Part shown: positions 352 through 64,000 of the stretch, piece after piece
Numbering within the stretch: the stretch's first letter is position 1
How the letters are laid out: every line of letters starts with the position of its first letter
Program-made: the position numbers and the translations under genes
Assembly: GCA_000092065.1 (NCBI GenBank)
Contig: CP000581.1
Origin: Ostreococcus lucimarinus
Lineage: Eukaryota
DNA: 64,000 bases
Strand: one strand, 5' to 3'
Notes under the pieces: model-generated
What the model saw: only the letters and a program-made list of their open reading frames with translations
Database searches by the model: none
What the model was told of the DNA's origin: nothing

Positions 352-2643
352 ATGCGGGCGTCGGCGCGGACGCCCGCGACGCCGGCGTCGACGTCGCGCG
401 CGCGCGGACGCGCGTCGAGCGCCGCGGTGCGGTGCGCGCGGATGGGCGCTGGGCGCGACGACGCGGGAGGCGGACGCGTCGCGCGCGACGTCGCGTCGCG
501 CGCGCGCGCGACGCGGACGCGCGAGCGAGGGTCGACGCGTCGACGCGGGCGATGGACGCGCGCGCGCGCGTCGTGGGGAAGCGACGCGCGGGCGGGGTAC
601 GAAATTTCGACGAGTTGGGACGATTACGACGACGAGGCGGACGACGACGAGAGAGGCTCGAACGAGGCGGCGGACGACGAGGAGACGGAGGAAGAGGAGA
701 GCGCGGCGGCGATCGTCGCGGTGGACGTCGTCGCGTCGCCGGAGTCGGTGTGGGCGTGTTTGGCGAGAGGGGAGAATTTGTCGGAGTTCGCGCCGACGCT
801 GCTCGTGGCCAAGCGCGGGCCGAAGCAATACGGATCGACGGAGACGGAGGTGCGATTGCTCGCGATGGATTACACGCTGTTCACGCCGAGAATGCTGAAT
901 ACGGTGAGCGTTCGGATCGTGGATAAGTCGAAGGGGCCACCGAACTGGGAAAACGGGCCGGCGAAGCTTGGATTTTTGGCGAGAAACGTCGACGAGCGAA
1001 GCGATTTCATGCTCGTGGGATCGTTTTGTATTCGGCCTATTTTTGGCGAATCGTACAAGTGCAGATTGGAGTACAGGGCTGAGTTGAGGCCGACAAATTA
1101 CGAAGTTCCAGCTGATGTCCTGCGCAGGGCGGTGGAGGAGAGCTTCCCGTTCGTCATCGCGAGCGTGACGAAGCAGGCGGTGAAGAGAGACCAACGACGA
1201 CTGCGGTCGCCGGGATTCCTGCCTCAGCTCGAGACCCCTTTCGGGGCATCCAGGGAACTGGCAAAGAAAGCGGACGATTCTTTAGTACCGAGTGGATATC
1301 TCGGATTGAGTGAGGTCAACGTCCCGACGCAAAACTCGGAATCGAGTCAAGACGAGGAGACGCCGGATGCCTCCAAACCCGCCGCGGTGCGGATGCGTCC
1401 GCGCGGCGAGACAGCCAAAGCCTCAGAGGCACCGAAGAGCTGGAGAGCTATCGGTGGTGGTGCGCAAGGAGAGAAGTGGTTTTCAAGCGACATTACCCCG
1501 TTTGAAAATCCAGGCTCGCTCGAGGTGCACATGCGACGGTACGATACGGACAGTTTGTTGCACAGACGCGCGCTGGCCGCGGTTCGCATCGAGGCGCCGC
1601 CGGCGTTGGTGTGGGATTTGTTGACGAATTACGAAAACATGCCAAAGTTCATGCCGCATCTCATGCACACTGAGTACATTCAAAGATATAATGCAGTCGA
1701 GCGTGAGGCGTCCGAAAAGATCAAACGATTGCGTCTCAGGCAAGTCTTCGTAAAGTGCGACCTCTTTCACGCCATCGAAGAGTCGACGGCGCTGGACGTC
1801 GTGCAGAAGGACGACCGCACCGAGTTACAGTTTCGCGTGTTACAGAACCCGAAATTCGGCGCGCTTCAAGGTAAATGGCTCGTCGTTCCGACCGAAGACT
1901 CCGCAGCCACGGTGTTGAAATTCGCCATCGAGGGCGTTGTGAGCAATGCTGGAATAGATGGGACGGCGAAAAAGGTGGACCCGCTCAACGAGCGCATCGT
2001 GTTTGAAGAGATTTCAACCATGCTCAAACAAGCGAGAGATTTCATGGAAGGAATTGCGAGTAAAGAGGTGCAGTCATACGGGAACGTCAACATCAAAGTC
2101 GCCGATCTTGTGCTGAAAGGCGCTGGAATGTCCGTCGACGAGGAAGACGCCGTCGACGAGCAAATCGTCGGCGCGCTCAACTCTGAAGCCACTGAAAACC
2201 AAGAGAAACAGATACAAGCGTTGAAGCGCGAACTTATCACTCTCGGCTTCGGCGAGAACAAGTGCATGCCGACGCGAGAACAGTTACGCGGCGGGCGTCA
2301 CTGGGACGCCATCCAGCAAATCGAAAGCCTCGGCGGTTTCGTAAAGGTGGCGCAACTTCTAGATTGGTCGGGCGCGAAGACGCGACCACGTGGGTATTGG
2401 ACACTGCGAACGTTGGAGTTGGAGATCAAAGACTTCATCGCCAACACAGAGGATCCGAATGTTCAACGGAACCCCCGAAGGATGCCGTCTCAGAAATCGT
2501 TGCGCGACGCCGGGCGAGCGGATATCGTCAATGCGCTCAAGCGTTTCGGCGGCGCCGAGAAAGTGGCGGCCAGCATGGGTCTCGAATTCGGTAGCGGCAA
2601 CAAACGTTCGTCCGCGAGCGCGCGCGGCGGCGGCGACGATTAG
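352..2643 (+). CDS. Tandem SRPBCC (START/Bet v1-like, COQ10/polyketide-cyclase-type) domain protein, probably organelle-targeted
   Basis: 763-aa ORF with ATG verified at 352. Two copies of the SRPBCC-type pattern (..VDVVASPESVWACLARGENLSEFAP.. and ..IEAPPALVWDLLTNYENMPKFMPHL..). The Arg/Ala/Ser-rich N-terminus followed by an acidic stretch resembles a transit peptide. Third codon positions are strongly G/C. Confidence 0.5.
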   Translation: MRASARTPATPASTSRARGRASSAAVRCARMGAGRDDAGGGRVARDVASRARATRTRERGSTRRRGRWTRARASWGSDARAGYEISTSWDDYDDEADDDERGSNEAADDEETEEEESAAAIVAVDVVASPESVWACLARGENLSEFAPTLLVAKRGPKQYGSTETEVRLLAMDYTLFTPRMLNTVSVRIVDKSKGPPNWENGPAKLGFLARNVDERSDFMLVGSFCIRPIFGESYKCRLEYRAELRPTNYEVPADVLRRAVEESFPFVIASVTKQAVKRDQRRLRSPGFLPQLETPFGASRELAKKADDSLVPSGYLGLSEVNVPTQNSESSQDEETPDASKPAAVRMRPRGETAKASEAPKSWRAIGGGAQGEKWFSSDITPFENPGSLEVHMRRYDTDSLLHRRALAAVRIEAPPALVWDLLTNYENMPKFMPHLMHTEYIQRYNAVEREASEKIKRLRLRQVFVKCDLFHAIEESTALDVVQKDDRTELQFRVLQNPKFGALQGKWLVVPTEDSAATVLKFAIEGVVSNAGIDGTAKKVDPLNERIVFEEISTMLKQARDFMEGIASKEVQSYGNVNIKVADLVLKGAGMSVDEEDAVDEQIVGALNSEATENQEKQIQALKRELITLGFGENKCMPTREQLRGGRHWDAIQQIESLGGFVKVAQLLDWSGAKTRPRGYWTLRTLELEIKDFIANTEDPNVQRNPRRMPSQKSLRDAGRADIVNALKRFGGAEKVAASMGLEFGSGNKRSSASARGGGDD

Positions 2644-55546: not shown

Positions 55547-55996
55547 TCACAAATCCTTCCCTCGCACCTTCCCGTCCTCGGCGTCCTTGAACGCCCCCCA
55601 CGTCCGTCGAAACAACCACGCGTAATCCCTCGGCCTGCACGCGTTCAGGTCCGCGCGCACGTCCTCGGGGTTCGTGTACGCCACCGCGAGCGGCACGCAC
55701 GCCGCGAGATACGCGACGCCGAACGTGGGAAACAGCGCGAACGCCACCGGATGCCCGCGCGCGACCTCGGCGTGCGCGAGCGCGCATCCGCCGGCGAACG
55801 CGAGCGTCGCGCACGCGAACGCGGCGATGATCGAACGCGCGAGGTCACCGGTGGCGACGCGCGCGCGCGCGCGGTCGCCGCGCGCGACGTCGAGCACGCC
55901 TCGAGGCATGCGAGCGCGAGAGTGACGCGACGCGGACGACGACGACGGACGACGGGTCTTCGAAGGGTCTTCGAAAGCGAGCGGTGTGGCGTTCAT
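55547..55996 (-). CDS. Hypothetical small membrane protein (2-3 TM helices)
   Basis: 149-aa ORF with ATG verified. Hydrophobic segments SIIAAFACATLAFAGGCALA and FPTFGVAYLAACVPLAVAY. No family recognised. Confidence 0.3.
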   Translation of the reverse strand: MNATPLAFEDPSKTRRPSSSSASRHSRARMPRGVLDVARGDRARARVATGDLARSIIAAFACATLAFAGGCALAHAEVARGHPVAFALFPTFGVAYLAACVPLAVAYTNPEDVRADLNACRPRDYAWLFRRTWGAFKDAEDGKVRGKDL

Positions 55997-56034
55997 GGTT
56001 CGTGCGATGCGTCGAGTCGGGTCGGGTCGGGTCG

Positions 56035-57183
56035 TCAGCGATCGGAGGAAGACGCGTCGTCGGCGTCGACGGCGGCGCCGCGCTGGTGGAGGAGCATGCG
56101 GCGAAGGACGACTCTGCGGAGCTGGGATTCGCTGACTTCGACGTCGGCGTCCGAGGCGTCGTCGACGTCGGCGTCGACGCGAGGCGAGCCGGCGCGAGGG
56201 CGCTTGCGCGCGTCGTCGGTTCGGGGATGCGGCGACGCGCTCTTGGCGTCGGCGCTCGGCGAACGCGAACGCCGGGGACGATCGTCGAAGCGCTCGGGCG
56301 GAACGACGAAGGTCGGCGGCCTCGAGGCGAGCGCGGCCAATAAATTCGCCTGCGTGGTCATGATGTCCGTGATCATGGACTTTAAGCGCTGCACGTCTCG
56401 CGCTTCCTCGTCTCGCATCGATTCGAGCGCTCGAACGCGGCGCTCGACGGAGACGAACGCGTCTCGCGACATCGGCGTTTCCAAATCGGCGTCGCGCGAG
56501 ACCGGCGCCATCTCCGGCGATATCCGATGCGCTCGCGCGACGTTCTGCGACGACAGGCGAAGCGCACTCGGCGCGCTCGCGTCGAGCGTCGGCGTCGACC
56601 CGCTCGCCACGCGTCCATCGCGTCGTCGATTATCGAAGCCCGCCAGCGGCTGCGATCTCGGCTGCGATTCGCGCGGCGTCCCGCGCGCGTCCATCGCGCC
56701 GCTCTCGACGATCCCCAATCCCTGCCCCCACCCCCCGACGCCGTAAATCCCCTCCTGCGACGATCCACCGACGGCGAGGTACGCGGGCGCGCGCTCCGGG
56801 TGCGCCTTCCCGTTCGTCCCGTCCGCGCCGCCGATCGCGCCTCCGCGCCGCGTCTCGACGCGCGCGTCCCCGTCCCCATCCTCCGCGCCGCCTCGCGCCC
56901 GATGTTCTCGCGCGCGCGCGTCCATCGTCGCCTCGCGCCTCGCGCATCGCGCGCGTCCGTCGTCCGCGAGCGCGTTCGCGCTCGGAAACGGCGGTAAGCG
57001 CGTCGTCGACGCCGCGCGTCGTCGCGATGCGTCGCCCGCGCCGTCGCTCGCGCGCGCGTCCGATCGCGCGTGCGCGTCGCGCGCGCGCGCGGCGTCGGTC
57101 CACCCGTCGCGGGCGAACGCGTACGCGGTTTCGTACGCGCGCGGTCGCGTCGCGCGCCTCGGCGGCCACGCGCGGTCGTCCAT
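56035..57183 (-). CDS. Hypothetical protein (Arg/Asp/Ala-rich, short coiled-coil segment)
   Basis: 382-aa ORF with ATG verified. Only the central part (..VERRVRALESMRDEEARDVQRLKSMITDIMTTQANLL..) looks non-repetitive. Coding status is uncertain given the GC3-driven ORFs in this genome. Confidence 0.25.
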   Translation of the reverse strand: MDDRAWPPRRATRPRAYETAYAFARDGWTDAARARDAHARSDARASDGAGDASRRRAASTTRLPPFPSANALADDGRARCARREATMDARAREHRARGGAEDGDGDARVETRRGGAIGGADGTNGKAHPERAPAYLAVGGSSQEGIYGVGGWGQGLGIVESGAMDARGTPRESQPRSQPLAGFDNRRRDGRVASGSTPTLDASAPSALRLSSQNVARAHRISPEMAPVSRDADLETPMSRDAFVSVERRVRALESMRDEEARDVQRLKSMITDIMTTQANLLAALASRPPTFVVPPERFDDRPRRSRSPSADAKSASPHPRTDDARKRPRAGSPRVDADVDDASDADVEVSESQLRRVVLRRMLLHQRGAAVDADDASSSDR

Positions 57184-57326
57184 CGTCGCGTCGGCGAGTG
57201 CCGGCGACGCGCGCGGTCGATCGGTCGCGATTCCGCGCCGGTTCGTCTTCCCGAGGCGCGCGCGCGGCGCACCGCGACGCGCGCGCGAGATCGACGGCGA
57301 CGAGGACGACGACGACGACGGGACGA

Positions 57327-57917
57327 ATGCGAACGCGCGCGCGCGCGCGAAGCGTCGGCGTCGCCGTCGCGGCGAGCGTCGCGCTGCTCGCGGGAAGGGC
57401 GCGCGGCGACGCGCGCGCGAGGCTGGAGGGGACGCGCGACGACGCGGTCGCTATGCGCGTCGCGGCGTTCGCGCCGTGCGAGGAAACGAACGCGCGAACG
57501 CGCGTAGAGATGTGTTTTGAACACGACATCGCGAGTGGGGACGCGGCGTGCGCGATCGGCGAAGGGACGATTCGACGCGCGCGCGACGGGACGGAGGTCG
57601 GGGATTCGTGCGGCGCGATGGAGATCGCGGACGGACGCGTCGTCGTTCGATTGCGAACGGGCGAGCGTTCCTGCGCGGTGCGCGAGGGCGATGCGTTCAG
57701 AATCGAGGCGTATTACGAGTGCGCGAGCGATGGACGACTGTTCCCGTATTCGACGCTCTTGCTCGGCGAAGTCGTGGCGTTGGCGGATTCGGCGATTTAC
57801 TTGGCCGAAGCCGCGCACGAGCTCGAACAAGCCGTCGAGACCCAAGATGAAGAACGGGAACACGAAGAAGACGACCGCGCGACGTCTTTCACAATCTACT
57901 GGCCAGCATCTTTTTAA
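57327..57917 (+). CDS. Hypothetical secreted Cys-containing protein
   Basis: ATG at 57327 gives signal-like MRTRARARSVGVAVAASVALLAG. The mature part has 8 Cys and normal composition, with a C-terminal acidic stretch. No family recognised. Confidence 0.3.
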   Translation: MRTRARARSVGVAVAASVALLAGRARGDARARLEGTRDDAVAMRVAAFAPCEETNARTRVEMCFEHDIASGDAACAIGEGTIRRARDGTEVGDSCGAMEIADGRVVVRLRTGERSCAVREGDAFRIEAYYECASDGRLFPYSTLLLGEVVALADSAIYLAEAAHELEQAVETQDEEREHEEDDRATSFTIYWPASF

Positions 57918-57939: not shown

Positions 57940-60900
57940 TCATCGACCCTTAAAGTCGCTATCTGATTCGCCGCTATCGCTCGGGTCGTCCTCGTCGAAG
58001 TCGTCGTCTGAGATTTTGTAATCGTCAGCGTCCTCTTCTTTTTTCTTTTTATCTACCACGTCCATGCCATCGGCGTCATCTTCATCATCCATGTCGTCGT
58101 CGTCGTCGCCGTCGTCGACACGATCGTCGTCGTCGTCGAAATCCGTCGCGGGGCGCGACGCGGGGAATCGGTCCATCGGATCAGTCGACGCGTCGATGAC
58201 TATGCCGAGATTTTCGATCATTTCAGCGCTGGTCAGGTACTTTTCCAACGGGAATAGGCATTTTTCGTAGTACTTTCTCATGGCAAACGACGCGCTCGTT
58301 TGCGTACTCAAATCACGGCCGAGCGTACGCGCAACCACTTTCCAAAACTTGCAGCGCGTGACTTGTTCGTATCCTCCGAGGTGCATGGCTTCTATGAACA
58401 CGCGGTGCAGATTCATCTGCGCGCCGCAAAATATCGGGGCTTGAGGAATAACACCACCCGCGAAGGCTTCTGCGCGGAACTTGTCGAAATCCCTGCGGTG
58501 GTCGCCCGAAGGCCATCCCAGTCGTCGCGCGATGGCTTTGCACTGTGCGATGAGAGTCATGTCTTCGGGAGACAGTTCCCTTTCGTGATCCACGGGAGCG
58601 GGGCCTTCGTGCACGGGATCGTGGTACTTTTCGGGTGCCGCGATTATTTCCCAAGGCGAGACCCACATGTAGTCTTCGGGATCACTATCGAACACGACCA
58701 TGACGGTTTCCCAACGATCAGGGCTCGAACGGACTTTCCGCACGCGACCAAGGTAATAGACGCAGCCATCGACAGACACGATCCCGCGCGCTTCGTTTTC
58801 CGCATCGACGCCCTCAAAGTGCATAATGATGCGACTTCCGCCGTCCCAAGGTTTCTCATCGACTTCCTGGTACTTCGACCATGGTAAAACGTACTCGGCA
58901 ATGTCTCCTCCGGCGTAAAGAGGCGCTATGATGAGTCTTCGTTCATCCTTTGCTTCCTTTGCGTCGGCTTGCTCTGCGTCGGCACTTTGTCTCCGCGTGC
59001 TCGGGAACTGACTTAACTCAGGATCATCGAGAAGTAGACACATCAACCAAGCGCAAGGCGGCGTATCGCCATCACTTGCAGCGTTGCGCCGCGGAGCTTC
59101 GCTTCCTCGATACGCCGTTCCGAGCACCACACACCGCTCGACCGGTCGCAGCGTATTCACATCAATCCAGTTTCGTGGACGCGACTTCTTGTCAACGTAT
59201 CGGTTATACGTCTTCACCAAACCTCTTTTGATGACAGCGACGACTTCGCCGGTATTAATTGCACCAACGCCGTGGGAAACGCCGGTGCACATTTGAAACG
59301 CGCCTTGCGACATTCGTTGAGGATCTTGAACGAGAAATCTCAGAAACTGATTCACCAAGTTTGCCGCGCGGCGGACTGTTAGAGGAGGTAACGGATCCAG
59401 TAACTCTGGCGCGGCTAAAATATCGTTTATTCCCGGAATAGGTTCCGATACTTCAGGAGCAGCGGTTGTCCCTTCAAGCTCCGCCTCTGTTCTCGGTCCG
59501 AAAACGTAATACCGCAGCTGCGCCAACCAAGTGGGTTTAGCATCTGGCCAGGCGACGTCATCCATCAAACCCGCTTGCGCGCAGACAATTTCTATCCCGG
59601 GCAAAACCTTCAAAAGTCTTACGAGAGATTGCTCAGATGCATTCAGCGCGCTTTCAAAATGTGTGCACGTTCTAATGAAACGATCTATCCAACGCATATC
59701 TCCAGTCCGCCAAAACGGTGCGGAGTGGAGAATAAACTTGACGGCGTTGAAAAGTCGAGACGTCAACTTCGCATCGTCGACAGAACCCAGAGCGACGTCA
59801 TCAAGATTCGCATAACCGTCCATCGCCAAAGTTTCGGACAATATTTCAACCTTTTTCCTTCTATCATCGTCGCTCAGTTCTGGCGCATCGGCGTCTCCGT
59901 CGACGGCGTGCGACATGAGTCGATGGAGTTTTGTGATGTATCGCTCGTTGTCATACTTTGGGTTGCACCAATAGCTCAACGCGTCATACTCTACAGTTCC
60001 TGGGGTGTACACGCCCCATCTTGAAGCACACTCTACTAGACCGGAAACGTTGCGCCGGCAATCTGGTGTATTCGCAGCGTCCTCTGAAAACGGCGCATCT
60101 TCGACTGGTGGACCAGCCATTGGTTGTTTGGGATACTCTACGCCGTCGATGACTTGCGACGATGCGGCGTCTTCGTCGCCATCGTACCATCCCAGTGGAG
60201 CAGTTTCGACAAACAGACGCCCCGCGTTGTTCGTACCGCCGAGGGCAAAGTATCTCCTACCCTGCTCGTCCACAGCGACAGGCTTACCTCGCGAGATGAC
60301 TGCGCGCTCGACGGCTTCAGACTTCCACTTCATCAGCTGCTCACGGCGATAGTCGGCAAGAGTGGGTGGTTTCACCAGTTCTTCGCTCGCGTCCGTTTCA
60401 TCGACTTCCATAGACACCGATTCGTCAGCATCATCTACGACCTCGGGATTCTCATCCTTTACGTTGATCTCTTTGCTGGTTTCCTTCTTTTTCTCCTCCG
60501 TCGGTTTTGGAACCTCGGTCGCGAGCGTGGGCGGGTTGCTGTGAAAATCGCCTGTTCTCCGCCGCGCGCGCACGTCATCGTAAATCTCCGTGAAGTATTC
60601 CCGGATGGTTTCACTCTCTAAGGCGATAGAACTAAGTGCAACCGCCAAAGCTATTCTGTGGACGGGCGAAAAACTCTCTAAAACTTCGCCCTTGTCCAAC
60701 TTTGCCACTGCCTCCAGCGCGGGCTTTCGCATTCGCGCGTTGACGCCCATTTGAAACTCAACAATCAAGTTATTCGCTCTATCTTGCCAATCCAACTCCC
60801 CGATGTCGTTCAACCCAAGAACGGGAGCGTCCCACCAACGCGCGCGCGTAGGCGCTGATCTAATCGTTTCTTGATCGATCGAATCTATGCGGCCCTCTGT

Positions 60901-62148
60901 GACGCGCAAACAAGACACCATGAAATCGCGCAATAGCGTCGCCTCTGCAGCTCCAAGATCACTACCGAAGAATGCTTTCGCGAAACGCTCAAGCGTCGAG
61001 CGTGGGCAGTACATGACGCTTGCAAACACTTGTGCGAAATCCCAAAGCGTGAGCAGCTCTGCCTGCAGATGTGGGCCGATGTGCGAATACTCGGGAAGAA
61101 TCGGCGACGCGGGCGGCGGAGGCTCTAGTCTCGGCACTCGAGGCTTGCTTTCCGATTCCTTCTCGGCCTTCTTCTCAGCCCTCAACTTTTCGCGCCTGGC
61201 GCGATCACGCTCTAGTCGCGATGCCTTCGTCGCGGAACCCAGCTGGTGTTTCTCTGTCGTCCACGTTTGCAAAGCTGTCAAAAATTGCGGCGCCGGGACG
61301 TCGGCTTCTTCGCTCGCCGTCGGCGGTCGCAGCGCTTTACATCTCACCAAAGTCTCGATTTGAGACACGATGAAGAATCCATCACCAACGATGTCCGCGT
61401 GCGTGTACTTGTACGCGCTGGTATCCTTCGATTCGCGTATCTCCTCTTCCGTGCACCCGTTCAACGCGGCTTCCTTTTGCGCCTCCGCCGTGGTATCGCC
61501 CAACATCTTCGCCGCCTTCGTCGGCGTTTTCACCGCCACCGGTACATCATGCGCCACGACGGGCACACCAAGAATGATATCTAAGCCTTCCTCCAGCGAC
61601 AATTCCCAGTTCTTCACCAATGCTCGAACGATCGCGTTGGTGAAGTTTGCGCGACGCGTCGTAACTGTCACGTACTTTTCAAACCTCGGAGCCGGGTTCA
61701 ACAGCTTGTACCACGCCCGCGGCGTCACGAGCCACAACTCGGGCTCGTCTCCACCGTACTTAATCGTCCAATCGTGCACCTCCATGAGCTTTAACGCGTG
61801 CGGAGGTTTGTCCTGCGGCGTCAACGGCGCCGCCAAGACCTCGCTCGGCAACCCGTGCTCGCCGCCCTCCAACTTCCTCGCTCTTCCCAGCACGAGCACC
61901 CGGTTCGGTCTCGACCCGTGCACGCTCACCGCTTTACCCTCCGCGAACTTATCCCTGAATTCGTACTCATCCAGCACGCGCATCGGCAGCGTCTGTCCCT
62001 CGACCTCGGACGGCGCCGTCGCGTCCCTCGCCGCCGCCGCCGCCTCCGCCGCCGCGCCGTCGCCCTCGTCGCCCTCGCGCGTCGCTCCGCGCGTCGTATC
62101 GCGCGCGACGGCGTCCTCGTCGTCGACGTCCGCGCCCGCCGTCGCCAT
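57940..62148 (-). CDS. Large chromatin-associated protein with DDT domain, a Tudor/BAH-like beta-barrel region and a C-terminal ARID DNA-binding domain; acidic tail
   Basis: DDT-like LQAELLTLWDFAQVFASVMYCPRSTLERFAKAF. ARID: ..FDKFRAEAFAGGVIPQAPIFCGAQMNLHRVFIEAMHLGGYEQVTRCKFWKVVARTLG....SASFAMRKYYEKCLFPLEKY. The poly-D/E tail ends ..DDPSDSGESDSDFKGR. Start set at the ATG at 62146-62148. The ORF-tool N-terminal extension (to 63063) is Arg-rich and antisense to the FIST gene. Confidence 0.65.
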   Translation of the reverse strand: MATAGADVDDEDAVARDTTRGATREGDEGDGAAAEAAAAARDATAPSEVEGQTLPMRVLDEYEFRDKFAEGKAVSVHGSRPNRVLVLGRARKLEGGEHGLPSEVLAAPLTPQDKPPHALKLMEVHDWTIKYGGDEPELWLVTPRAWYKLLNPAPRFEKYVTVTTRRANFTNAIVRALVKNWELSLEEGLDIILGVPVVAHDVPVAVKTPTKAAKMLGDTTAEAQKEAALNGCTEEEIRESKDTSAYKYTHADIVGDGFFIVSQIETLVRCKALRPPTASEEADVPAPQFLTALQTWTTEKHQLGSATKASRLERDRARREKLRAEKKAEKESESKPRVPRLEPPPPASPILPEYSHIGPHLQAELLTLWDFAQVFASVMYCPRSTLERFAKAFFGSDLGAAEATLLRDFMVSCLRVTEGRIDSIDQETIRSAPTRARWWDAPVLGLNDIGELDWQDRANNLIVEFQMGVNARMRKPALEAVAKLDKGEVLESFSPVHRIALAVALSSIALESETIREYFTEIYDDVRARRRTGDFHSNPPTLATEVPKPTEEKKKETSKEINVKDENPEVVDDADESVSMEVDETDASEELVKPPTLADYRREQLMKWKSEAVERAVISRGKPVAVDEQGRRYFALGGTNNAGRLFVETAPLGWYDGDEDAASSQVIDGVEYPKQPMAGPPVEDAPFSEDAANTPDCRRNVSGLVECASRWGVYTPGTVEYDALSYWCNPKYDNERYITKLHRLMSHAVDGDADAPELSDDDRRKKVEILSETLAMDGYANLDDVALGSVDDAKLTSRLFNAVKFILHSAPFWRTGDMRWIDRFIRTCTHFESALNASEQSLVRLLKVLPGIEIVCAQAGLMDDVAWPDAKPTWLAQLRYYVFGPRTEAELEGTTAAPEVSEPIPGINDILAAPELLDPLPPLTVRRAANLVNQFLRFLVQDPQRMSQGAFQMCTGVSHGVGAINTGEVVAVIKRGLVKTYNRYVDKKSRPRNWIDVNTLRPVERCVVLGTAYRGSEAPRRNAASDGDTPPCAWLMCLLLDDPELSQFPSTRRQSADAEQADAKEAKDERRLIIAPLYAGGDIAEYVLPWSKYQEVDEKPWDGGSRIIMHFEGVDAENEARGIVSVDGCVYYLGRVRKVRSSPDRWETVMVVFDSDPEDYMWVSPWEIIAAPEKYHDPVHEGPAPVDHERELSPEDMTLIAQCKAIARRLGWPSGDHRRDFDKFRAEAFAGGVIPQAPIFCGAQMNLHRVFIEAMHLGGYEQVTRCKFWKVVARTLGRDLSTQTSASFAMRKYYEKCLFPLEKYLTSAEMIENLGIVIDASTDPMDRFPASRPATDFDDDDDRVDDGDDDDDMDDEDDADGMDVVDKKKKEEDADDYKISDDDFDEDDPSDSGESDSDFKGR

Positions 62149-62616
62149 CGCGCGCGCGCGTCGCGCGCCGTCACCCGCCCGTCGTCGGTCGGTGCGGTGC
62201 GTTGAAGATCCGCGACCGCCGCCGCGCCGCCGCGCGCGCGCGATTCGCGTCGCGTCGCGCGCGTCGCGTCCGCGCCGGCGATTCGCGTCGCGCGTCGCGC
62301 CGCGTCGCGCCGCGTCGCCGTGCGCGCGCGGGTGTGCGCGCGCGTCGTCACATCTCGACTCGTCCCGTCGATGACGCCGCGACGCCGCGTCGCGCGCGCG
62401 CTCGCGGACGCGCTCGCGGACGCGCGCGCGCGCGCGTCGCCCGCGCTCGAGCGCGCGGACGCCGCGCCGTCGCCGCGCGCGCGCGCGTCGCCGCGCGCGA
62501 CGACGACCGGTCGACGCTTCGCGACGGCGGCGCGAGACGACGGCGACGACGACGACCGGGCGCGGGCGACGACGGCGCGGACGACGGGAACGCCGTCGTA
62601 CGCGTTCGCGTCGGCG

Positions 62617-63783
62617 ATGTCGCGCGCGACGTCGCTCGAGGACGCGGTGCGAGCGTGCGCGCGAGACGTCGCGCGAGGGCTCGGTCGAGGTCGGGACGCG
62701 ACGTGGGCGCAGTTGTTCGTCTGCGGTGACTACGACGAGGACGCGGTCGCGCGCGCGGGCAAGCTGACGCGTGAATTGCTCGGTGGAACGTCGGTGTCGC
62801 TCGTGGGAGCGGTGGTGCGAGGAGGGGTGGGCGCGGAGGGGATGACGGAGTCGGGCGTGGCGTTGACGGCGGCGGCGATGCCGGGGACGACGACGGCGAC
62901 GTTTCGAGCGACGAAATCGGCGCTTCCGGCGATCGACGACGGGAGCGCGTGCTCGTGGGTTGATTTGGCGAAGAGTTGCGAGAACGAGGGCGAGACCGTG
63001 GGGGTGACGGTGTTCGCGGATGCGTCGTTCGAGCACGTGGGCGAGCTGCTGACGCGCTTGCACGTGGCGATGCCGAACAGCGTCGCGCTAGGAGGGGTCG
63101 TGGACGAGGGGAGTCTCATGTTTTTGAACGATGACGTCGTGCGACGAGGAGCTGTCGCTTTGCTCATTCGTGGTGAGTTCGAATTGGACACGCACGTCGC
63201 GCACGGCGCGCGACCGGTGGGACCCGTGATGTCGTTGACTCACGCGCACGACAACGCGGTGTTGGAGCTCGACGATTCGCCCGCACATCCGCTGCTGTTG
63301 GAAACCCTCGAGCAGTTGCCAGAGAACTCTAAATCGCTGCCCGTCATGCTCGGACTCGGGGTGAGTGGCTCTAAAGGTCCGTTCGTGTGCCGCGATATTT
63401 TATCCGTGGGCGAAACCGGGGGCGTGGAAGTCGCGTCGATGGCTTTGCAAGAGGGCGACGTCGTACAATTACACGTGCGCGACGGGAACTGGGCGAAAGA
63501 GCACGCGAATCGCGTGATTGAAAAGTGTGCCGATAGTGCGAAAAAAGTGAGTAGTGAGGAGTTGGGGTCAGAGAACTCGACAGGTGCCATGATATTCGCG
63601 TGTGGCAACGGCAACCGAATGCACGCCAGCAATTTTCGCGAACGCGTTCCGGGGACGCCCCTCGGCGGCGCGTTCTTGCGCAGCGAAATCGCGCCCCTTG
63701 CAAAAGGTCGTGCGAGTAACGTGCTGTCACACACGAGCACGATAGGAATTTACCGTAAACGTAAGAAATCGGTGTCGATGTAA
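62617..63783 (+). CDS. FIST-domain (FIST_N + FIST_C) protein
   Basis: Two-lobed FIST-like pattern ending ..GAMIFACGNGNRMHASNFRE.....PLGGAFLRSEIAP. Start taken at the ATG at 62617. An upstream in-frame ATG at 62371 would add an Ala/Arg-rich presequence. Confidence 0.55.
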   Translation: MSRATSLEDAVRACARDVARGLGRGRDATWAQLFVCGDYDEDAVARAGKLTRELLGGTSVSLVGAVVRGGVGAEGMTESGVALTAAAMPGTTTATFRATKSALPAIDDGSACSWVDLAKSCENEGETVGVTVFADASFEHVGELLTRLHVAMPNSVALGGVVDEGSLMFLNDDVVRRGAVALLIRGEFELDTHVAHGARPVGPVMSLTHAHDNAVLELDDSPAHPLLLETLEQLPENSKSLPVMLGLGVSGSKGPFVCRDILSVGETGGVEVASMALQEGDVVQLHVRDGNWAKEHANRVIEKCADSAKKVSSEELGSENSTGAMIFACGNGNRMHASNFRERVPGTPLGGAFLRSEIAPLAKGRASNVLSHTSTIGIYRKRKKSVSM

Positions 63784-63806
63784 CGCGCGCTCTATGTATA
63801 TTAAAT

Positions 63807-63954
63807 TCAATCTCGATCAGAAACTTGCGCGTCGACGTCGATAGTATCTCCCGCTGAGCCACCCCCGTAGCTTTTACGACCACCACCCTGCTGACCACCC
63901 TGCTGAGCGCCGCCCATGCCGCCCATGTCGCCCATGCCGCCCATACCGCCCATA

Positions 63955-63986
<32 letters not shown>

Positions 63987-64000
63987 TCGAGCGTTCATCT
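63807..64000 (-). CDS. 3' end of a gene running off the window: probable DnaK/Hsp70-type chaperone C-terminus with (GGM)n repeat
   Basis: ..GGMGGMGGMGGMGGMGGMGDMGGMGG...GDTIDVDAQVSDRD* resembles the Gly/Met-rich linker and short acidic tail of organellar Hsp70s (..DVIDADFTD..). The upstream part lies outside the window. Confidence 0.3.
63898..63990. repeat. 9-bp tandem repeat (catgccgcc)n, encoding (GGM)n on the minus strand
   Basis: Ten near-perfect copies are directly visible at the window end. Confidence 0.85.

Follow-up and report, generated by a model that had tools for sequence, protein, structure and literature searches.

A gene on the minus strand of Ostreococcus lucimarinus contig CP000581.1 (assembly GCA_000092065.1), at positions 57940-62148 of the 64,000 nt stretch of DNA analysed here (the window, to which all coordinates refer), encodes a protein with a DNMT1-type replication-foci domain (RFD) and an ARID domain, and is hereafter called the RFD-ARID gene. 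From the N terminus, the order of its parts is RFD, basic linker, DDT, WHIM1, acidic linker, WSD, helical region, double Tudor-like barrel, ARID and acidic tail. On the strength of this domain content, the protein, taken to be a large chromatin protein of the nucleus, is probably (with a likelihood of around 60%) a targeting, or accessory, subunit of an ISWI nucleosome-spacing complex in chlorophytes; because a complete DDT-WHIM1-WSD module is present, a role as an ISWI partner is the most reasonable reading.

The module was recognised through the relatives of the protein. A profile based on Mamiellales sequences found the homologues P0130, P0136, P0116 and others with E values of 1e-14 to 1e-28, and P0150 at 2.6e-8; the best-matching stretch in P0130, P0136 and P0150 was the DDT region, which in these proteins is a significant Pfam match. 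Two orthologues reached the gathering cut-off of the DDT model (22.3 bits), and distant members scored from 26.6 bits (P0116) to 37 bits (P0150). WHIM1 was above its cut-off of 19.1 bits in P0116 (23.5 bits), P0130 (23.3 bits), P0138 and P0155. The best WSD score among 11 homologues, found in one orthologue, was 25.8 bits against a cut-off of 25.4, which was also exceeded in P0130 (25.7 bits), P0150 (27.8 bits) and P0155. When carried through the alignment onto the O. lucimarinus protein, these matches placed the DDT domain at residues 360-418, WHIM1 at 476-519 and WSD at 622-754, consistently for five to seven independent homologues in each case. An hhalign comparison of the family's DDT-WHIM alignment with three WAC-DDT-WSD proteins gave a probability of 96% (E = 4.9e-9) over 70 columns, corresponding to residues 355-418. 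The signature motifs of the module can also be seen directly in the sequence, as LWDF...F...L..PP.PL.RF..A, LLRD.H.ALLR, Y..L.P..R+..L.AL......FR and G.P.G.D..GRRY..LGG....G+.FVE...WG.Y....L..W.....ER. Judged by these comparisons the DDT domain is genuine at the level of the family, though sub-threshold for this sequence alone. Such a domain had been proposed in the original prediction, made from the DNA letters of the window; its identity is upheld by the orthologues, the distant homologues and the hhalign match over the segment quoted at that time, but its position is 26-30% of the way along the protein rather than in the middle. With WHIM1 and WSD following downstream of the DDT domain, the full ISWI-binding type of module is present.

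The RFD is the strongest Pfam match in the protein, covering positions 2-142 of the 144 in the Pfam profile, and is one of several parts, along with WHIM1, WSD and the first of two barrels, that the original prediction overlooked. A family profile of residues 45-300 finds solved DNMT1 chains of about 1500 residues, with two RFD matches each (E = 9e-9), which we take to be of the plant MET1 type, as well as shorter DNMT1 chains including 6pzv, 5wvo and 3epz (E = 3.6e-7 to 7.6e-6). Ubiquitinated H3 and PAF15 are what the RFD of DNMT1 recognises on chromatin that is being replicated. Pfam searches at E<=1 detected no BAH, C5 cytosine methyltransferase or SRA domain in the algal protein; it thus shares the RFD with DNMT1/MET1 but lacks the BAH and C5-methyltransferase domains of DNMT1, and is not a methyltransferase. 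The idea of a decayed DNMT1 gene was rejected, as the protein retains no trace of BAH or methyltransferase domains and its architecture has been kept in different classes of chlorophytes. The Mamiellophyceae, O. lucimarinus included, are reported to have lost DNMT1 and kept DNMT5 (Funabiki et al.), so that this protein carries an RFD in a lineage that no longer has DNMT1; the RFD-ARID family itself is not confined to the Mamiellophyceae. At the other end of the protein, the ARID that had been predicted is confirmed both by Pfam (46.3 bits against a cut-off of 24.1) and by matches to PDB sequences, namely ARID5B (5.3e-7), ARID1A and ARID3A, with ARID4A chains at E = 0.005-0.007. Domains of this kind bind DNA, often with a preference for AT-rich sequence.

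Upstream of the ARID is a region that had been thought to resemble a barrel of the Tudor or BAH type. A profile of residues 945-1195, drawn from close and distant members, matched the ancillary domain (AD) of ARF transcription factors, with E = 1.4e-9 for MpARF2 (6sdg) and 1.4e-8 for AtARF1 (4ldx), and the match takes in the terminal VSPWEI/E motif. From the same 16-sequence alignment AlphaFold2 produced a model with two beta-barrel units (pLDDT 79.9, pTM 0.75). When this model was compared with the PDB by Foldseek, ARF DNA-binding domains filled the first 14 places (E = 5.9e-8 to 1.1e-5), ahead of the tandem Tudor of Sgf29 (7.7e-3). The model aligns over 160 residues with the ARF1 DNA-binding domain, roughly double what the ancillary domain would span, which implies that the upstream segment, residues ~965-1042, corresponds to the barrel of the ARF 'dimerisation domain' (DD). 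Conserved motifs in this first barrel are G(D)xVxVxRxG, RPVER..V...YR and PPCxWLL, and the second has conserved aromatic positions at F1111, Y1132 and F1153. As modelled, residues ~965-1172 make up a complete DD-AD double barrel without a B3 insertion. The crypto-Tudor of PHIP/BRWD, a reader of methylated H3K4 that gave rise to the DD-AD fold of ARFs, is built in this same way (PMC11685440), and weak Pfam matches to BRWD_AD in three distant members agree with a link to it. Profile, model and Foldseek results therefore agree with the Tudor part of the earlier suggestion, in the form of an ARF DD-AD or PHIP crypto-Tudor module; a BAH fold is not supported, the BAH-reader feature being absent, and there are two barrels, not one.

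Sharing this double barrel does not make the protein an ARF, since the B3 insertion is absent: neither B3 nor PB1 gave a Pfam match, and the model leaves ~20-30 loop residues at the B3 site. Nor is it a PHIP, as the crypto-Tudor-like module is the only part of PHIP/BRWD present, with no Pfam match to WD40 or bromodomain. The original prediction had also drawn a parallel with ARID4. This holds as far as the general logic goes, in that barrels of the Royal family lie beside an ARID, but barrels of the ARID4 type are not supported, and the layout of ARID4A/B (RBBP1), with a hybrid Tudor and PWWP/RBB1NT before the ARID and a chromo barrel after it, is not that of the algal protein.

Between the WSD motif and the first barrel, the helical region is conserved in close orthologues, P0013 and P0098, and in P0140 a single short match covers part of it; residues 761-955 may contain an equivalent of WHIM3. 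The poly-acidic tail that had been remarked upon is clearly present, Asp and Glu forming 55% of the last 67 residues. Six residues of the tail (D1381, D1385, S1390, D1391, D1396 and D1398) do not vary among 11 homologues and F1384 hardly does, and this acidic-aromatic pattern is suggestive of histone-binding acidic motifs.

The region 57940-62148 is one real gene, not several. The open reading frame (ORF) list and translation give a single uninterrupted frame on the minus strand, with an ATG at 62148 and a stop codon at 57940-57942, in keeping with the single protein of about 1400 residues first proposed. From end to end the translation has 100% identity with XP_001415894.1 (UniProt A4RRG0), an annotated protein of O. 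lucimarinus CCE9901 named 'ARID domain-containing protein' and also entered as 'predicted protein', so that the model adopted here is the public NCBI gene model. The mechanically defined ORF reaches farther upstream, to a GTG at 63063, but this extension is Arg-rich, enters the neighbouring divergent gene and is missing from most orthologues. The GC content of the coding sequence is 56%, against 62% for the whole window. Seen along the window, the gene body (58001-62000) has a GC content of 53-57%, and both flanks are higher, at 69-71%.

A first homologue search returned 13 proteins of 1358-1565 residues, with identities of 53-63% down to 28%, all of them collinear and all with RFD and ARID. 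Scanned singly against Pfam, 11 homologues gave matches to RFD, ARID and ARF_AD in every case, to DDT in 10 and to WSD in nine. Domain searches consequently recovered far more than an ARID, with RFD, ARF_AD, DDT, WHIM1 and WSD also found at the family level; the precomputed Pfam annotation of the protein and its homologues names no more than ARID, RFD and, in a single case, ARF_AD, leaving the DDT-WHIM part and the first barrel unlisted. Word-indexed searches with full-length and Tudor alignments gave close relatives only, and the distant members were reached solely by an exhaustive HMMER search, in which a profile of residues 330-1200 (leaving out RFD, ARID and tail) was compared with 1.84 billion representative proteins. 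This yielded 85 proteins at E<=1e-3, 16 of them at E<=1e-30, and hence the family is rare. The collinear architecture is found in ~25 divergent proteins, and many of the long HMMER matches keep the order RFD-DDT-WHIM1-WSD-AD-ARID: P0130, for instance, has RFD, DDT, WHIM1, WSD, AD and ARID, and P0156 has all six domains. The weakest matches on the list, with E = 4e-6 to 2e-4, are to true ACF1/BAZ1-like proteins of the WAC-DDT-WSD type, in which the profile aligned with the DDT or the WSD region.

All named members are Chlorophyta, namely O. lucimarinus, O. tauri (the orthologue in which is named for its 'DNMT1 replication foci domain'), Haematococcus lacustris (Chlorophyceae) and Pedinophyceae sp. 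YPF-701; the remainder are metagenome proteins. The suggestion that the protein is lineage-specific is thus correct as far as members carry names, and the search for orthologues in other green algae that had been proposed finds the fusion conserved, including in Chlorophyceae and Pedinophyceae. Some members have additional features. P0155 (Pedinophyceae sp. YPF-701 CAG9463943.1) and P0181 have an extra N-terminal bromodomain before the RFD, giving the order Bromo-RFD-DDT-(WHIM1)-WSD, followed by ARF_AD in P0155 and by the barrel and ARID in P0181. P0150 has a C2H2-zinc-finger-like insertion (CPVCGKDF...HCFKTGH) at residues ~505-530, within its DDT domain. The cluster around P0138 comprises 10 related H. 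lacustris entries of 465-1700 residues, seven of which are on the same 12.4-Mb contig, which suggests either local gene duplication or fragmentation of the assembly or annotation.

DDT and WHIM motifs form a pocket that binds the SLIDE domain of ISWI and linker DNA (PMC8536118), and interactions between Arabidopsis DDR proteins and ISWI are cited by Funabiki et al. The sequence features of this class of ISWI accessory proteins (BAZ/ACF1/Itc1/RLT/DDR), a DDT domain with WHIM1 and then WSD downstream, are found in the algal protein at the level of its family, and ACF1/BAZ1A, WSTF/BAZ1B and Itc1 have the three in the same order. The work of WSTF-ISWI at replication foci (BAZ1B review, PMC8536118) parallels the possession of an RFD by the algal protein. 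It is not a strict member of the BAZ group, however, as WAC, MBD, PHD and bromodomain gave no Pfam match at E<=1, whilst BAZ proteins lack the RFD, double Tudor and ARID that it carries. Hence it belongs to the broader DDT-WHIM class and to the ARID proteins, and is not a BAZ, ARF, PHIP, DNMT1 or ARID4 protein proper.

Part of the architecture has been seen before. Mutte et al. 2018 described, in a chlorophyte protein and not in land plants, an ARF ancillary domain flanked by an ARID, stating that there was 'only AD' (PMC5873896). This is most likely the same family, having the same pair of domains in the same algal group, to which the protein described here adds the DD-like barrel, RFD, DDT, WHIM1 and WSD. 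The novelty originally suggested for the combination is accordingly reduced, in that the pairing of a reader with an ARID was already on record, but the DDT-WHIM part was not found described. More precisely, no description of the DDT-WHIM1-WSD module, the full DD-AD barrel or their combination with an RFD was found in the searchable literature, although an earlier mention is possible from Aravind and Iyer, who reportedly catalogued WHIM architectures in 2012. A close functional parallel is the Arabidopsis CRAF ISWI complex, in which the DDT proteins RLT1/2 are joined by ARID5, whose reading of H3K4me3 and AT-rich DNA recruits the complex (PMC10980423). A complex of this type (CHR11/17 - RLT1/2 - ARID5 - FHA2) follows the same logic of DDT-WHIM, methyl reader and ARID that the alga has on one chain. 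It differs in being composed of separate polypeptides, with a PHD finger as its reader and a homeodomain in RLT; neither PHD nor homeobox gave a Pfam match in the algal protein. By analogy, the algal protein would be a natural fusion, uniting functions that Arabidopsis divides between RLT1/2 and ARID5.

From this domain content we infer how such a subunit could operate. The DDT-WHIM1-WSD module would dock onto the ISWI ATPase and linker DNA, as in ACF1/BAZ, Itc1, Ioc3 and plant RLT/DDR, and the three appended modules would choose where the ISWI motor works: the RFD as a targeting input, on the model of the recognition of ubiquitinated H3/PAF15 by DNMT1; the double Tudor-like barrel as a reader, on the PHIP model of methylated H3K4; and the ARID by contributing DNA binding. 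The conserved acidic-aromatic tail might contact histones or regulate the other modules. Several results weigh against this proposal. In this protein alone the DDT domain does not reach its threshold (15.3 bits against 22), the DDT-WHIM family profile matched no PDB sequence at E<=10, and an AlphaFold2 model of residues 330-1200 from an eight-sequence alignment was unusable (pLDDT 40.5, pTM 0.22). Furthermore, according to one report (PMC11685440) the homologous Tudor cage is blocked in ARFs, where the reading of histones has no functional importance, and because of this occlusion histone reading by the algal barrel is uncertain.

The low scores could also be taken to mean that the DDT-WHIM part is a degenerate relic in an ISWI-independent, ARID-type DNA-binding regulator of transcription, with the Tudor-like barrel and RFD as protein-interaction modules. 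That the ARID is the best-scoring C-terminal domain, and that DDT and WSD in the Mamiellales score at or below the Pfam cut-offs, would fit such divergence; yet the positions of DDT, WHIM1 and WSD are kept family-wide, and the invariant LWDF and G..D..GRRY motifs point to selection, not decay, making this alternative unlikely. We regard with similar doubt the possibility that the protein is an adaptor for the maintenance of DNA methylation, brought by its RFD to replicated, ubiquitin-marked chromatin to help DNMT5, with DDT-WHIM mainly as a scaffold. Its RFD is strong and complete and persists outside DNMT1 in the Mamiellophyceae, where DNMT1 is reported lost and DNMT5 kept, but there is no methyltransferase, SRA or BAH domain in the protein, and the occurrence of the family in Chlorophyceae and Pedinophyceae implies that it is not a replacement specific to the Mamiellophyceae. 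Such a role would in part be compatible with that of an ISWI subunit.

Long spurious ORFs are common in DNA as GC-rich as this, and neighbouring genes might have been read through as one. Against such an artefact stand the 4.2-kb uninterrupted frame, the conservation of the inter-domain linkers as well as the domains, the identity with the NCBI gene model, and the existence of over 20 divergent homologues, some with identities as low as ~20-28%, in which a single ORF has the same collinear layout, so that we consider it scarcely credible; an origin from two fused genes was rejected on the same evidence of conserved collinear single ORFs. The proposed ISWI subunit may also be taken further. DNMT5 methylates nucleosome linkers in the Mamiellophyceae, and the protein might couple replication-linked marks to nucleosome spacing in chlorophyte algae, an RFD-guided remodeller having taken over DNMT1-type targeting, critically so in the Mamiellophyceae. 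The RFD would respond to ubiquitinated H3 or to PAF15 in the wake of the replication fork and the double Tudor to histone methylation, and DDT-WHIM would drive ISWI to set a regular array of linkers, then methylated by DNMT5. We offer this extension as a speculation, and rate it as improbable in this full form.

Features of the RFD-ARID gene and Pfam matches in its product. Gathering cut-offs (bits) are DNMT1-RFD 22, ARID 24.1, ARF_AD 27, DDT 22, WHIM1 19.1 and WSD 25.4.
Feature	Residues	Window coordinates	Strand	Basis and remarks
Whole coding sequence	1402 codons + stop	57940..62148	(-)	Intronless; ORF list, translation; collinear single-ORF orthologues
DNMT1-type replication-foci domain (RFD/RFTS)	52-193	61570..61995	(-)	Pfam PF12047
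Conserved continuation of RFD	to ~300	61249-61569	(-)
Basic charged linker	301-345	61114..61248	(-)	31% Lys+Arg; conserved RLERDRARRE motif in alignment
DDT domain	360-418	60895..61071	(-)	Pfam in relatives, mapped by alignment; hhalign
WHIM1 motif	476-519	60592..60723	(-)	Contains FSPVHRIALAVALSSIALESETIREYF; Pfam in distant homologues, mapped
Acidic low-complexity linker	546-596	60361..60513	(-)	33% Asp+Glu; length differs among orthologues
WSD (WHIM2, D-TOX E) motif	622-754	59887..60285	(-)	Contains GKPVAVDEQGRRYFALGG and ..WGVY..L..WC...ER; Pfam in homologues, mapped
Helical middle region	761-955	59284..59868	(-)	No Pfam match; helical in low-confidence model
First Tudor-like barrel	~965-1042	59023..59256	(-)	Modelled counterpart of ARF DD and first PHIP crypto-Tudor barrel
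Second Tudor-like barrel	1067-1172	58633..58950	(-)	Modelled counterpart of ARF AD and second PHIP crypto-Tudor barrel; ends in conserved VSPWEI
ARID/BRIGHT DNA-binding domain	~1216-1310 (Pfam core 1234-1302)	58219..58503	(-)	Pfam, PDB matches
Poly-acidic C-terminal tail	1336-1402	57943..58143	(-)	55% Asp+Glu; terminal motif SDDDFDEDxxSDxGESDSDF
Pfam DNMT1-RFD PF12047	52-193			E = 3.8e-32; 111.7 bits
Pfam ARID PF01388	1234-1302			E = 5.6e-12; 46.3 bits
Pfam ARF_AD	1086-1168			E = 3.7e-5; 24 bits, sub-threshold
Pfam DDT	363-415			E = 0.023; 15.3 bits, sub-threshold

The RFD-ARID gene is arranged head-to-head with a gene encoding a FIST-domain protein (62371-63783, plus strand), their start codons being separated by ~220 bp (62149-62370) in a very GC-rich part of the window (69% GC over 62001-64000), and the two probably share a bidirectional promoter. 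On the other side a convergent gene (57384-57917), encoding 177 residues with no Pfam match, ends 22 bp from the stop codon of the RFD-ARID gene, so that the 3' intergenic space is nearly nil. The stretches 55751-57917 and 62149-63063 contain numerous long ORFs (100-490 residues) that overlap one another in several frames and have Arg/Ala-rich translations; these look like by-products of DNA with a GC content of ~70%, not genes. About 8.5 kb away on the same chromosome, past the end of the window (~70724-72148), is a gene with a 946-residue product that has a precomputed Pfam match to WSD and no Pfam match in its first 475 residues; going by that annotation, it is a second WHIM-type protein near the RFD-ARID gene.

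For the history of the ARF DNA-binding domain, these results mean that the crypto-Tudor scaffold also adjoins a different DNA-binding domain, the ARID, in chlorophytes, and that the earlier 'AD only' description of the chlorophyte protein is to be extended to the full DD-AD module. If the ISWI inference is true, the protein would be an accessory subunit with a set of targeting modules unseen in the ISWI complexes of animals, fungi and land plants, and the first ISWI partner to bear a DNMT1-type replication-foci domain. Should it indeed couple replication-linked marks to nucleosome spacing, the protein, as the one-chain equivalent of the RLT-ARID5 pair of plants, would also suggest that the coupling of a remodeller with an ARID and a methyl reader is ancient in green plants. 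The protein is a candidate for the organisation of nucleosome arrays in compact picoalgal genomes with unusual linker methylation, and O. tauri is genetically tractable. The architecture, conserved and unusual as it is, suggests that in picoalgae the spacing of nucleosomes may be tied to histone methylation and to marks associated with replication.

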